DNA of 64,000 nt from positions 1 to 64,000 of the IMG/VR virus record IMGVR_UViG_3300047323_000138. One strand, written 5' to 3'. A program made the position numbers and the translations under genes. The number at the start of each line of letters is the position of its first letter. The stretch's first letter is position 1. Below the pieces are notes generated by a model. It made no database searches and had not been told where the DNA came from. It saw only the letters and a list, made by a program, of their open reading frames with translations. This DNA is from a virus. Positions 2,562 to 52,484 of the stretch are shown in pieces.

Positions 2562-3856
2562 TACTTGTACTCCCAAATTATTGCGATGCCATCAGCACCA
2601 TTACCACCCGGTCTTGCTGTTGCTTGAGATGGATTGTTACCTGAACCACCACCACCAGCACCCGGACCGCCGCCAGCAAAGCCAGTACCTGTCCCAGTAA
2701 CAGAGCCGTTACCGCCACCACCGAAAGGTCCGGGTGCTCCGGGACCACCTTGACTACCTGTAGTACTTGAGCCTGAAACCCCAATGGCGCCAGATGTACC
2801 AGATGAATTCAGGATATTGCCGGATACTGATGCGGTGCCACCATTACCACCCTTGGCAGTGAATACTACGTTACTAGGACCTTGGCTCTCACCACCAACA
2901 CCACCACCAGCACTTGCTAGTGCGCCGAAGGATGTCGATGATCCGGGATTCGTGCCTGTGGTTATACCAATACCACCTAAGCCAATAGTGACTGTTTGGC
3001 CACTGAAACCGGATGTCAATCTAGTTTTTGTATATGCCCCTGAACCACCACCACCACCTACAGTATACTGCCCTGCACCAGTTATCGCACAGCCACCACC
3101 GGCACCGCCGCCGCCAACAAGTTCAACGACAATCGATGTTGTACCCGGTGTTGGTGTGTAAGTGCCTGTTGTCGTGATGCGTTGGACACCAATAAGCCTT
3201 CCCGCGCTGCTGTTCCCACCAGAGCTGGCAATCATTACCCATGAACCACCACTAATAGATGTGTTCCACTGAAGCCAAACATCACCATTAGTTGCAATAG
3301 CACCAGAAGGTAGTGCAGCATGGTCAATACCAACAATAGCTGCTGCTGTAATAACCCCATTGTTCGGAGTAAAAGTAGAAGCACCAGTGTTAGCATTAAG
3401 AGCTTTAAACTTCAACACCATACCATCAACAAGTGTTTTTACTACCGGAACATAGTCAGCTTTGTAGGTGTTTGCTGTACCTGTATCCAATGCATAAATA
3501 GGGCTACCAGACTGGTTTCTGAAAGCTTGGCGCCAGTATGAATTAGTGGTATCTGTGGTTGGGTTTTGGTTAGTGCTGCTTTGCACAGCTTCGTAAATAA
3601 GACCATCACTACCTTGTACAAACGCTTTAGGGGCAGATGCAGTGAAGTAGTAATCTTGTGTACTAGACCAAACACTAATACCCTTTTGGAAGATATGAAC
3701 AAGAGCATTATCTTGACGATTCTGTGACCAGTTTTCCCACTGAAAAGGAGGTACTTCAGCAGTCCAACCTGTTTGAATTTTAACATTACTTGGGGACACA
3801 ATGGAGCCGCCGGACGCCCATTGGTAAGTAAAGTCTGGACGAGAAATCTCAGTCAT
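2561..3856 (-). CDS. Tail fibre protein with glycine-rich C-terminal domain
   Basis: N-terminal KIQTGW..EVPPFQWENW baseplate anchor, small carbohydrate-binding-like module, GTYTPTPGT..VELVGGGGAGGG Gly-rich domain. Confidence 0.85.
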   Translation of the reverse strand: MTEISRPDFTYQWASGGSIVSPSNVKIQTGWTAEVPPFQWENWSQNRQDNALVHIFQKGISVWSSTQDYYFTASAPKAFVQGSDGLIYEAVQSSTNQNPTTDTTNSYWRQAFRNQSGSPIYALDTGTANTYKADYVPVVKTLVDGMVLKFKALNANTGASTFTPNNGVITAAAIVGIDHAALPSGAIATNGDVWLQWNTSISGGSWVMIASSGGNSSAGRLIGVQRITTTGTYTPTPGTTSIVVELVGGGGAGGGCAITGAGQYTVGGGGGSGAYTKTRLTSGFSGQTVTIGLGGIGITTGTNPGSSTSFGALASAGGGVGGESQGPSNVVFTAKGGNGGTASVSGNILNSSGTSGAIGVSGSSTTGSQGGPGAPGPFGGGGNGSVTGTGTGFAGGGPGAGGGGSGNNPSQATARPGGNGADGIAIIWEYK

Positions 3857-36436: not shown

Positions 36437-36891
36437 GATATACACGCGGTAAATGGGTCGCTAGCTACCGAGATACATTCTCCCTAGACATCACCCTATC
36501 CCCAATCATCTACGCCGGACTCTCACGTTTCCACGATGTCTTAGAACAAAAGAATCGCGAAGGGAGATGTCTAGGTATCCCAAACGAATATATGAAAGAC
36601 GAATCCAAGTGGGTGACAGACTCTGACGTACAAAATTGGCTAGACGACATCAAGAAGATGATGTATGCTTTCGAGAACAAAGAGCCTGATATAAGTTTGT
36701 ATGGGTTTAAGCTAGAGATGGTGCCAGTTCCGGGAGGTGTTGCTAAAGAAGGCTGCTCAGTTCCCTACACAATCGAGTGTGATAATCTGGAAGAGAAAGC
36801 TAGATATCGTGCTGATTGTGTTGAGCATGAGAGGTTGGTGCAAGAAGGGTTGAATCTACTAGCACTTCGCTGGAAGTCTCTTTGGTGGTAA
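36433..36891 (+). CDS. Conserved phage hypothetical protein
   Basis: DTFSLD.TL..II..GL..F and W...LKKM..AF pattern. Confidence 0.7.
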   Translation: MRYTRGKWVASYRDTFSLDITLSPIIYAGLSRFHDVLEQKNREGRCLGIPNEYMKDESKWVTDSDVQNWLDDIKKMMYAFENKEPDISLYGFKLEMVPVPGGVAKEGCSVPYTIECDNLEEKARYRADCVEHERLVQEGLNLLALRWKSLWW

Positions 36892-40005: not shown

Positions 40006-40702
40006 TTGGGCGCACGTGGGGGGCAGTCAAAAGGGTCGGACTGTTAATCGACCTAAATTTGAAAAAGGATATAAGCGAACTAGACTTATCCAAGGTTTTG
40101 GTGTTAATGATGCTGATTATTCTTTGGGTAATAGTAAAGGAGACACTAAATGCCCTATACATAAGAAGTGGTTAGATATGATTTATAGGTGCTATCGGCC
40201 AAATAATGAAGAAACGTCTTATAGGGACAAGACAGTCTCACTAAAGTGGAAGCGTTTCTCTGACTTTAAGATGTGGGTAGATATGCAAGTCTTTAGTAAA
40301 GAAATGGATTTAGATAAAGATATTCTAATCAAAGGTAACAAAGAGTATGGTCCAGATACTTGCGCATTTGTACCGGAATATGTAAACCTATCCATCAGTG
40401 GATTTAAATCTAAAGAAATAAACCCTTGGCCTATTGGTGTACATTGGTCAACACACCTTAAAGGTCGACCCTTCGAATCGATGTGTCAGATTGGAGATAA
40501 AAGAAAACGACTAGGTAGGTTTGCAACTCCGGAAGAAGCTCATGCTGCATGGCAGCTAGGTAAAGTAGAGGCTTTAGAACTTGTTATTAATCGCTACGCA
40601 AAAGAGGAGTGTTTTCGTACAGACGTTGCAGATGCTTTGATGTGAAGAGTTTGGGATTTGAGGTTGGACCATGCAAACGGCGTAGAAACTAAATCATTGT
40701 AA
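40006..40702 (+). pseudogene. HNH-family homing endonuclease, apparently frameshifted at G6 and with premature TGA
   Basis: GFGVNDADY, WLDMIYRCY, LDKDILIKGNKEYGPDTC motifs; RBS fits TTG 40006 in another frame; frame continues after TGA 40643-40645 to TAA 40702. Confidence 0.65.
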
Positions 40703-50468: not shown

Positions 50469-50698
50469 TGGAAAAGTATAAACTGACTTACGAGATTACT
50501 GAGTACGGCGGAAGTATTCAACTGCTGAGTGTTGAACCTAAATCTAATTATGTAGAGCAATGCTTCTATGAAGGAGAGATTCTACAGCAGGTGTACTTGG
50601 ATGATGACGGTGTGTATGAACTAACTGTGGTTCACGTCTTTGAAGAGGACTACGATCACTTCGGTATTGTTAATCTAGAGAAGGTGTATGGACGTTAA
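50465..50698 (+). CDS. Hypothetical acidic protein
   Basis: Coupled ORF. Confidence 0.6.
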   Translation: MMEKYKLTYEITEYGGSIQLLSVEPKSNYVEQCFYEGEILQQVYLDDDGVYELTVVHVFEEDYDHFGIVNLEKVYGR

Positions 50699-51242
50699 GG
50701 AACAAGCTGTAGCCCTGCGAAAGCAGGGATTAACGTATGCCCAAATATCAAGCTCCTTAAACGGGGCTTTGTCTGTTGATTGGTGTAAGAGAAATCTGAA
50801 GGGTGTAAAAGCTGTAGATAAATACACACTACTTTACGAACAATCCCTTATACTTTCTAAAAGACAAGAGGGTGTAACAGATAAAGAGCTTAAGGATATT
50901 GCATTCAAGGTATTAGGGACAGTTGAGAAAGGAGATATATCCAGATTGAAAGCCAAGATTAAACGGAAGAAAAATGATGACCAAAACTCGGTACTTGTTC
51001 GACCTGCATGGATGTCGCCCACCACTCCAGCAAAGAGCTTAGTTATGATGAACGAACTATCTCATGAGTTATATGAAAATATCCAGCACCTAGTGGACAT
51101 GTACATTGAGCAATACCCAGACACGGATAGAAAGAAGGCTTTAGAAGAGATGGTGTACCTATCCAATGGATGGGCATTAAAAGAGAGTCTGGAACGTCGT
51201 ATGGAAAGGAACTACAGGACAGTAGAACGTATAGAGAAGTAG
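50688..51242 (+). CDS. HTH DNA-binding protein
   Basis: AVALRKQGLTYAQIS...SVDWCKRNL N-terminal HTH. Confidence 0.7.
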   Translation: MDVKEQAVALRKQGLTYAQISSSLNGALSVDWCKRNLKGVKAVDKYTLLYEQSLILSKRQEGVTDKELKDIAFKVLGTVEKGDISRLKAKIKRKKNDDQNSVLVRPAWMSPTTPAKSLVMMNELSHELYENIQHLVDMYIEQYPDTDRKKALEEMVYLSNGWALKESLERRMERNYRTVERIEK

Positions 51243-51244
51243 CC

Positions 51245-51471
51245 TGCACTTTCTTTACTCCTATACAACACAAGAGTGCACGACCTGATTACACTGGTCT
51301 TTAGGTGCACTTTATCCGCACCTTTTGTCTACGCACTTTACTGAAAGCCTTGTAAATTAAGGGCTGTAGGTGAGTGCACTTCTTTTACTATAATATTAAT
51401 ACTCTCACAGTAGTGCACCTTACTAAATAAAATCACATGGGAAATATCCCAACCCCTCCAGAAGGCACTTA
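51245..51471 (+). repeat. Eight GCAC-core short repeats, most followed by YTT
   Basis: tgcacttt, gtgcacga, gtgcacttt, cgcacctt, cgcacttt, gtgcactt, gtgcacctt, ggcactta. Confidence 0.6.
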
Positions 51472-51752
51472 GCTTGTATCAGTAAGTGTCTATTTCTTTG
51501 TCTAGAAAATATGGCAGTTGGTCTGTAAGCCTTTATTTATAAGGATCTTCTAGTTTCCTATAATTACCAGAGTTCTAGTTGTAGCGTTTAACAGCTTACT
51601 ACCCCGTCACCTATATGTCAACCATAATATCAAAATATCTGAAGAATTCATTAATCGGCCTGCCCTGATAGAGACAATGAATAAAATGCAATCCATGTAC
51701 CAACCCCTCCATCGATAGCTATAACTCATCATCTACCGTTCCATAACGTAAC

Positions 51753-51780
51753 ACTACGCAGAACATAGCTTATGTTAAAT
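51753..51780 (+). other. dif-like XerCD recombination site
   Basis: ACTACGCAGAA-catagc-TTATGTTAAAT: exact XerD arm, 6-bp spacer, XerC-like arm. Confidence 0.7.
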
Positions 51781-52139
51781 GCTACTGAATAGACTCATCC
51801 TATCAACATACTGAGCGACTACCACACCTGTAGCTACCTTGTCAAGAACATCTATTAGCCTACATGTATAGGGCTGGATAGTGTGTTGGTGAGGTAATGT
51901 CAAGGGTTTATTGGGAAGTTTATAGTGTAAAGGAATCGTTACGGTGTGTTAACGCGCTCAGGAGGGCGCTATGCTTAACTTGATACGTAGTATCGACTAT
52001 GCTTATGAAAGACTAAATAGTGACTAATACATCTATTTCAGTCACATTGTAGACTAGAGAGAATAAAGCTTAGGAGGAGTTTAGAAGGTTATAGGAGGGT
52101 GGTATTTGAAAGGATACATGTTGATACTCATAAACAACT

Positions 52140-52160
52140 AAGGCCCCGTGAGGGGCCTTG
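52140..52160. terminator. GC-rich hairpin at the end of the minus-strand early block
   Basis: aaggcccc-gtga-ggggcctt. Confidence 0.65.
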
Positions 52161-52178
52161 TAGACTTTCCTGCTTGAA

Positions 52179-52484
52179 TTACTTAGCTACAAGTAACTCT
52201 TTAGGAATGTATGCAACACCATCACATACATAAACTTGATCAAAGAACTTAGTTTCAGAGTAGCCGTAGGTGCGAACAATCTTAAAGCCTTCCACTTTAG
52301 CTGCAAAGTGCCATTTAGCAAAACCTTCCTCCTGCTGAATTGCAAACTCATCAGCCACTACATACTCAGTCTTCACGCGTTTCTGTGCAGGAGCCACTTT
52401 CTTGATGCAAGTGTAGCCATAAGGCTTGCCATTGAAGAACTGTGGGCAGGTAACTTCAGAACCACAGCAAGTGCAAGTAATCAT
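52179..52484 (-). CDS. Zinc-finger hypothetical protein; likely start MITCTCCG
   Basis: GGGAG RBS; CTCC...YGYTC. Confidence 0.65.
   Translation of the reverse strand: MITCTCCGSEVTCPQFFNGKPYGYTCIKKVAPAQKRVKTEYVVADEFAIQQEEGFAKWHFAAKVEGFKIVRTYGYSETKFFDQVYVCDGVAYIPKELLVAK

Follow-up and report, generated by a model that had tools for sequence, protein, structure and literature searches.

Sites recombined by XerC and XerD are already known from bacterial chromosomes, from plasmids and from small integrating ssDNA phages. In the dif/xrs layout on which we based our comparisons, two 11-bp arms lie 6–8 bp apart and their inner ends form the dyad ATAA-centre-TTAT. ColE1 cer and pSC101 psi are sites at which host XerCD acts on an extrachromosomal element, and in both the XerC arm and the centre deviate. 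They need about 180 bp of accessory DNA, located on the XerC side and bound by PepA together with ArgR or ArcA. The IMEX group (CTX-phi, VGJ-phi, TLC-phi and the gokushovirus prophages) consists of small ssDNA phages that encode no integrase, carry dif-like sites with dif-matching centres and use host XerCD to become integrated at dif. In P1, a large, temperate myovirus with a plasmid-borne prophage, a single loxP site serves Cre both to circularise the terminally redundant DNA and to resolve dimers. On plasmids of Acinetobacter baumannii, XerC and XerD bind their sites cooperatively, and compatibility between sites is set by the centre (PMC11705084, Blanchais et al.). According to the same study, plasmid sites with a (T/C)CGCCA centre are cleaved by XerD without FtsK, and dimer resolution was proposed for such sites in Acinetobacter; the plasmids also form XerCD-dependent cointegrates governed by centre compatibility, a plasmid site that diverged in its inner motif was inactive, and inner motifs govern activity (PMC11705084). 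Our literature search found no report of XerCD sites within the terminal repeats of phages, or of their conservation in large tailed phages of virulent type, and no paper linking phages of the WFH or RpT1 type (see below), or phage terminal repeats, to Xer.

The locus considered here belongs to a phage from a rhizosphere metagenome. The window, that is the whole stretch of 64,000 nucleotides that was analysed, comprises bases 1–64000 of a complete 87,351-bp IMG/VR record. A 28-mer on its plus strand, at positions 51753–51780, reads ACTACGCAGAA / CATAGC / TTATGTTAAAT. An earlier note on this DNA had described it as an exact XerD arm at 6-bp spacing from a XerC-like arm, with a centre other than TGTATA, and all of these features are as stated. 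The XerD arm (51770–51780) is identical to that of E. coli, Pseudomonas, Vibrio, Neisseria and many other dif sites (PMC2731167 table), and the window contains no other exact or one-mismatch copy of it. The XerC-like arm (51753–51763) agrees with E. coli dif at 7/11 positions and with the common beta/gamma-proteobacterial arm ATTTCGCATAA at 8/11. Its CGCA core and its terminal AA are intact and correctly spaced from the XerD arm. With the centre at 51764–51769, the inner dyad becomes AGAA-CATAGC-TTAT in place of ATAA-centre-TTAT, that is, one inner XerC position is off.

The site lies between converging plus- and minus-strand gene blocks, as had been noted before: the plus-strand arm ends at 51242, the minus-strand arm starts at 52179, and the 936-bp zone between them (51243–52178) holds only two chance ORFs of 41–42 codons. 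Equivalent zones in relatives measure 0.6–1.5 kb. The zone had also been taken for the sole non-coding stretch of about 0.9 kb, but a divergent region at about 35.5–36.2 kb is gene-poor too. The last gene of the plus arm in the ORF list (50688–51242, plus strand) encodes a 184-aa protein with a weakly helix-turn-helix-like N-terminus, which we used as a marker. It had no PHROG, Pfam or PDB match below threshold, apart from weak HTH_23 matches in 4 of 9 homologues, and searches for it in cultured phages and in plasmids were negative. Terminator-like hairpins close both arms: one with a T-run, read from the sequence at 51463–51499 on the plus strand and kept with changed stems in L004, L006, L007, L008 and L011, and a GC-rich one at 52140–52159 on the minus strand. 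A search of Rfam yielded just a weak, sub-threshold sRNA match at the terminator, and the window has no tRNA genes. Alignment with L004 delimits a site-containing block of about 205 bp (51710–51914) that also occurs in phages of another clade.

The zone contains several further recurrent elements. Its start is occupied by a GCAC-core repeat array (51244–51420), conserved in relatives, in which GTGCAC occurs at 51276, 51305, 51374 and 51413, so that 4 of the genome's 7 copies fall within 180 bp; the array could serve to bind an end-recognition or regulatory protein. A AAAATATC-type motif recurs at about 51442, 51511 and 51632 and at equivalent places in relatives, and may be a phage-specific promoter or binding element. 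At 51973–51998, a conserved GCTTA(A/G)C is followed by a short hairpin, also seen at L004:5809, L008:5267 and L021:4527, with compensatory stem changes among relatives (CATC/GATG, TACC/GGTA, GATAC/GTATC). The left half of the zone has one further GCTTAAC block of this kind; such elements could be either a DNA motif or a small structured RNA. A perfect DnaA box, TGTGGATAA, followed by a palindrome, lies 5–6 bp from the XerC arm at L070:3304–3312 and L081:2429–2437. DnaA boxes were not enriched in the zones of the relatives that were scanned, and the box is not a general zone feature.

How readily might such a site arise by chance? The 28-mer is the best dif-like match in the entire 87,351-bp genome. 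In 300 order-2 Markov genomes, which served as the chance model, a score of at least 18/22 against the E. coli arms occurred twice, or in about 1 in 150 by one-genome statistics, whereas at least 19/22 against the generic pair ATTTCGCATAA / TTATGTTAAAT was reached in 0/300. The simulated maximum was 18/22, and the exact XerD 11-mer appeared in 7% of the simulated genomes. By single-genome statistics the match is suggestive, being only moderately unlikely by chance; such odds are not decisive, since the genome is a single one from a scan of very many. What decides the question is the evidence from the relatives.

Searches with the marker protein found relatives at 18 IMG/VR loci and 41 metagenome loci, its homologues anchoring loci L002–L032 and L059–L099. 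At many of them, a gene-free convergence zone lies downstream of the marker gene. Conservation in relatives was a check proposed by the earlier note. The best dif-like score was 17–21/22 in 15 of 37 non-redundant zones, compared with 0 of 29 upstream control regions of similar length (cut at no less than 17/22), and the distribution of zone scores is bimodal. This result speaks against the chance match in AT-rich DNA that the note had allowed for. In 5 of 5 complete genomes, the genome-wide top dif-like match falls in the convergence zone, and there is one site per genome in G000, G003, G004 and G006. G002 (L038) has a second match of 19/22 at position 36448 on the minus strand, inside a small plus-strand coding frame; its score is above the simulated maximum, but it is probably a chance occurrence.

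The exact 28-mer had no match in the IMG/VR records searched, which may not include the window's own. It recurs unchanged in L059, whose marker protein is 95% identical. Other relatives carry variants: ACTTCGTATAA-CCTCTA-TTATGTTAAAT in L003, ATTTCGCATAA-TGTAGC-AAATGTTAAAT in L004, ACTTCGCATAA-TGTAGC-AAAAGTTAAAT in L017, ACTACGCATAA-TGTACA-CTTTGTTAAAT in L068 and, in reverse orientation, AGTTCGCATAA-CACCCA-TTATGTTAAAT in L021, L069 and L070. The XerC arms of relatives thus include ACTACGCATAA, ACTTCGCATAA, AGTTCGCATAA, ATTTCGCATAA and ATTGCGTATAA, the last four of which correspond letter for letter to natural XerC arms, from Thiobacillus and Methylobacillus, Neisseria, Haemophilus and Idiomarina (PMC2731167 table). 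The centres include CATAGC, CCTCTA, TCGGAT and CACCCA. In nine aligned sites, the information content per position is 1.38 and 1.66 bits in the arms, 0.46 in the centre and 0.4–0.5 in the flanks; these nine were chosen by arm match, and the fair test is the comparison of zones with controls (15/37 vs 0/29). Among the nine, the full inner dyad is found in L003, L010 and L021, and L004, L006 and L017 retain ATAA on the XerC side. The AGAA variant of the window recurs in L060, L083 and L085. Homologous sites in this group therefore have conserved arms and a free centre, beyond what chance would produce.

Presence of the site is patchy. In the marker-protein tree, site-bearers occur in 3 of 3 ingroup clades, each of which also has siteless members, and two sites are inverted; overall, the site is absent or reduced to a half-site in about half of the clade. 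The closest IMG/VR relative (L014, 83% marker identity) has the XerD half-site TTATGTTCAAT (10/11) alone, without a XerC arm, at the homologous position L014:227–237, as read across the circular junction of the contig. L002 and L061 likewise show decay to a half-site. In the whole genomes of four site-negative relatives there was no convincing site, only three weak matches with no more than two mismatches to the inner XerC ATAA plus XerD arm. Where the site is present, its surroundings vary. Relative to L059, in which the rest of the zone has diverged, no part is better kept than this block of about 205 bp. It is also about 80% identical, by a by-eye estimate, to L004, whose marker is just 41% identical; the site itself differs from that of L004 at seven positions, a divergence at least equal to that of the flanks. 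The zones of L021 and L070 cannot be aligned except for 30 bp of 100% identity, which are the site including its centre. Taken together, the site is old and selected, yet dispensable and often remodelled. In one soil run (X2), the summed contig depth over window positions 51755–51871 was about 190, as against about 12–14 over neighbouring genes (about 14×); this excess is contig-based and weak, and it suggests many related replicons that have the block in common.

The phage itself is a myovirus with genes for tail sheath, baseplate, tape measure, portal, major head protein and large terminase. It has a replisome of its own and encodes a primase-helicase, a family A DNA polymerase, exonucleases, ribonucleotide reductase and several HNH endonucleases; this gene content is of virulent type. 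The nearest cultured phages are Pseudomonas Otagovirus-like myoviruses, with about 43% terminase identity. The absence of an integrase from the window, pointed out earlier, extends to the whole 87,351-bp genome: no tyrosine recombinase was found in either, while the same search was positive in 14 of 14 control genomes. Searches of the phage for a serine recombinase, ParA, ParB and an FtsK-gamma domain were also negative, with control genomes positive each time, and neither a resolvase nor repressor-type evidence was found among its genes. For the plasmid-like carrier state that the earlier note had considered, there is accordingly neither ParA, ParB nor repressor-type evidence. The source run gave one circular contig without alternative joints; other sequencing runs contained small shares from relatives, with no sign of integration, and the habitat is soil and rhizosphere. 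An uncultured, recombinase-less, virulent-type soil myovirus clade retains the site in a gene-free zone.

The position of this zone in the genome can be approached through the nearest cultured relative, phage phiPsa374, in which the order of the PhoH, protease, phosphoesterase and DprA-like genes agrees with that in the plus arm of the window. The phiPsa374 genome is linear; both of its gene arms point towards the ends and run into direct terminal repeats of 526 bp. Because of this synteny, the convergence zone of the window probably corresponds to the joined genome ends, that is, to the terminal-repeat junction. In the phiPsa374 repeat, a motif with AGTGCA at its core occurs three times; no dif-like site was found in the phiPsa374 sequence. 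The 127-bp terminal overlap of the window's record is the assembly k-mer, as overlaps in IMG/VR records are 127 or 77 bp and do not represent real repeats.

Dif-like sites within terminal repeats were found in two cultured virulent phages. A search of cultured phages with the window-type 34-mer gave no meaningful match, and the zone has no DNA similarity to cultured phages. The L021-type 34-mer had few matches, among them about 22 near-identical records of similar size, from E. coli phages and one Shigella phage, that include WFH, WFC and Wifcevirus WFH and match at 24/28. In WFH (vB_EcoM_WFH, NC_048194.1), with a computed terminal repeat of 3,701 bp, AGTTCGCATAA-CAGGTA-TTACGTTAAAT is present in both repeats, at 3337–3364 (L219) and 70919–70946 (L220), in a gap flanked by annotated terminators that converge. 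The T7-like Ralstonia phage RpT1 (OK274245.1) carries CCTACGCATAA-TAACCA-TTATGTTAAAT within its terminal repeat of about 209 bp, with copies at L221:82–109 and in L222 (record positions 40661–40688). The degenerate site of L062 has the same centre, TAACCA. A Cre/lox-like arrangement, with the site inside a terminal repeat and therefore in two direct copies, is thus observed in WFH and RpT1; the window may have it too, synteny with phiPsa374 pointing to the convergence zone. The resemblance to P1 has its limits, in that the recombinase would be the host's and these phages look virulent.

The L021-type site matches 1,425 plasmid records, 942 of them from Acinetobacter. Acinetobacter plasmid sites that we retrieved read GTTTCGCATAA-CAGCCA-TTATGTTAAAT, agree with the L021/L070 site at 27/28 positions and at two flanking bases, and are located among typical pdif sites. 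Their centre is related to the (T/C)CGCCA centres of plasmid sites that XerC and XerD of Acinetobacter bind and cleave in the absence of FtsK (PMC11705084). For the window site, the best plasmid matches are CACTACGCATAA-CAAAGA-TTATGTTAAAT on Klebsiella IncF plasmids and a dif-like site on a Methylomonas plasmid; the arm ACTACGCATAA, found in L062 and L068 and one mismatch away from the window's XerC arm, is also present on a Klebsiella plasmid. These Acinetobacter pdif/xrs (xrs38/xrs66), Klebsiella IncF and Methylomonas sites resemble the phage sites in their 11-6-11 layout and in combining a canonical XerD arm and a private centre with a XerC arm that is more divergent. On account of these matches, the phage sites appear to fall among the privately centred Xer sites of extrachromosomal elements. 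The likeness to plasmid sites drawn in the earlier note thus holds up, the sequence seeming closer to these than to chromosomal dif. Compared with dif itself, the phage arms are identical or near-identical, and conservation is stronger in the XerD than in the XerC arm, as it is in proteobacteria, but the centre does not resemble TGTATA. The outer GTTAAAT of the XerD arm is invariant (9/9 aligned phage sites) while its inner positions vary in some phage sites, the reverse of the chromosomal pattern.

The setting nevertheless differs from that of plasmid sites. The phage replicon is an 87-kb virulent-type myovirus with a single site, in which no plasmid-type replication or partition genes were found. 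Acinetobacter pdif modules are bounded by several sites in alternating orientation, an arrangement that the phage genomes lack. Accessory DNA of the cer/psi kind was not recognised in a non-rigorous look, and the conserved block flanks the phage site on both sides. The cer centre is 8 bp long, while that of the phage site is 6 bp. Six KOPS motifs were counted, too few to judge polarity or FtsK guidance. ISNCY-family transposase genes adjoin plasmid Xer sites in L103, L104 and L105, which is consistent with a report that elements of the IS1202 family target dif and pdif sites (PMC10132070).

In our view, the data are best explained by a genuine plasmid-type XerC/XerD site, kept at a convergence zone that would correspond to the genome ends, with host XerCD recombining its copies; we hold this reading with about even confidence. 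One alternative is that the sequence is not a Xer site at all but a promoter or a phage-protein site whose likeness to dif is accidental. Directly next to the XerD arm there is a weak promoter-like match on the minus strand (TTGATA, 16-nt spacer, TAGCAT), GTTAAATG(C/T)TAC is common to several relatives, and the one-genome odds given above leave room for coincidence. Yet the promoter-like hexamers are missing in L003, L008 and L021, which retain both arms, so we rejected the promoter reading. An RNA-structure reading was rejected as well, folding at the site giving z-scores of -0.67 and +0.98, which leaves the conservation without such an explanation. Arms that equal natural XerC and XerD arms, a fixed 6-bp spacing, a free centre, occurrence in either orientation and the near-identity of one phage site to plasmid Xer sites make this alternative very unlikely. 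Even less probable, to a degree that we regard as slight, is IMEX-type attachment, in which the phage would integrate at host dif through XerCD and could persist as a prophage. The earlier note had raised this option, both arms are Xer-like, no integrase is encoded, and there are precedents in filamentous phages and gokushoviruses (PMC7062461). The centres, however, vary between close relatives and are unlike the TGTATA-type centres of beta/gamma-proteobacterial dif. Moreover, no integrated copy turned up: among 185,579 species genomes (one each), the marker gene was found on short MAG contigs alone, in Methylococcus and Pedobacter bins that yield no host call and no prophage. The single circular contig of the source run and the virulent-type gene content point the same way.

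Two further alternatives accept a Xer site and differ about its function. One is that the site serves exchange, host XerCD fusing the phage with plasmids or with phages of compatible centre, so that it would be a small mobile module with no role in the life cycle. The identical 30-bp site within unrelated flanks (L021/L070), its 27/28 agreement with sites of Acinetobacter plasmids, which form XerCD-dependent cointegrates (PMC11705084), the two orientations, the patchy distribution, the block common to different clades and, weakly, the depth excess over the block in one soil run would all fit. Against it, each genome examined has a single site and no flanked module was found, similarity between zone and plasmids is limited to the 28-mer, and no phage–plasmid hybrid contig was seen in the species genomes or sequencing runs searched; we consider exchange as the sole function unlikely. 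The other is that the site was functional in an ancestor and the window copy, with its AGAA, is a decaying relic that no longer recombines. The inner-arm change from T to G falls in a motif that governs activity (PMC11705084), half-sites have arisen by decay in L002, L014 and L061, and the seven differences from L004 lie in a block that is otherwise about 80% identical. On the other hand, the 28-mer of L059 is identical despite the diverged remainder of the zone, and AGAA recurs in three other relatives. ColE1 cer (ACAA) and pSC101 psi (GCAA) are active with a base other than T at the position where the window arm has G. Decay of the window copy is thus, in our estimate, improbable.

If host XerCD does act on this site, the likeliest role would be XerCD-driven circularisation, joining or monomerisation of phage genomes. 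Host XerD would bind the perfect right arm, XerC would then be recruited cooperatively to the weaker left arm, and the pair would recombine two identical copies of the site. Copies in the two terminal repeats of one injected genome would give a circle, copies in two genome copies a head-to-tail joint, and copies in a circular dimer would give monomers. Such a scheme would be a host-supplied equivalent of P1 Cre/lox. Each lineage could keep a private centre because only the identity of the centre with itself would matter. Several points count against this reading. The XerC arm of the window has AGAA, while nearly all dif sites have ATAA, the distribution is patchy, and phiPsa374 has no such site. 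XerD normally needs FtsK at the septum, and the phage encodes no FtsK-gamma-like activator. Phages that package from concatemers also have no obvious need for monomer circles. A wider version, in which unrelated virulent terminal-repeat phages (the soil clade, Wifcevirus and a T7-like Ralstonia phage) place a XerCD site in or at their repeats for circularisation or joining by the host recombinase, is a tentative proposal that we regard as possible, if doubtful; if true, it would mean that the host supplies lytic DNA metabolism with a Cre/lox-like step, hitherto undescribed.

If the site is functional, a housekeeping recombinase of the host would be a host factor for lytic phages. This would bear on circularisation or concatemer formation in terminal-repeat phages, on host range and resistance, for which the state of xerC or xerD could be relevant, and on DNA exchange between phages and plasmids with Xer sites, such as Acinetobacter resistance plasmids. 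The E. coli Wifcevirus phages make the idea directly testable. An evolutionarily maintained XerC/XerD site in a phage without a recombinase of its own suggests that the phage may borrow a host enzyme to control the shape of its genome.
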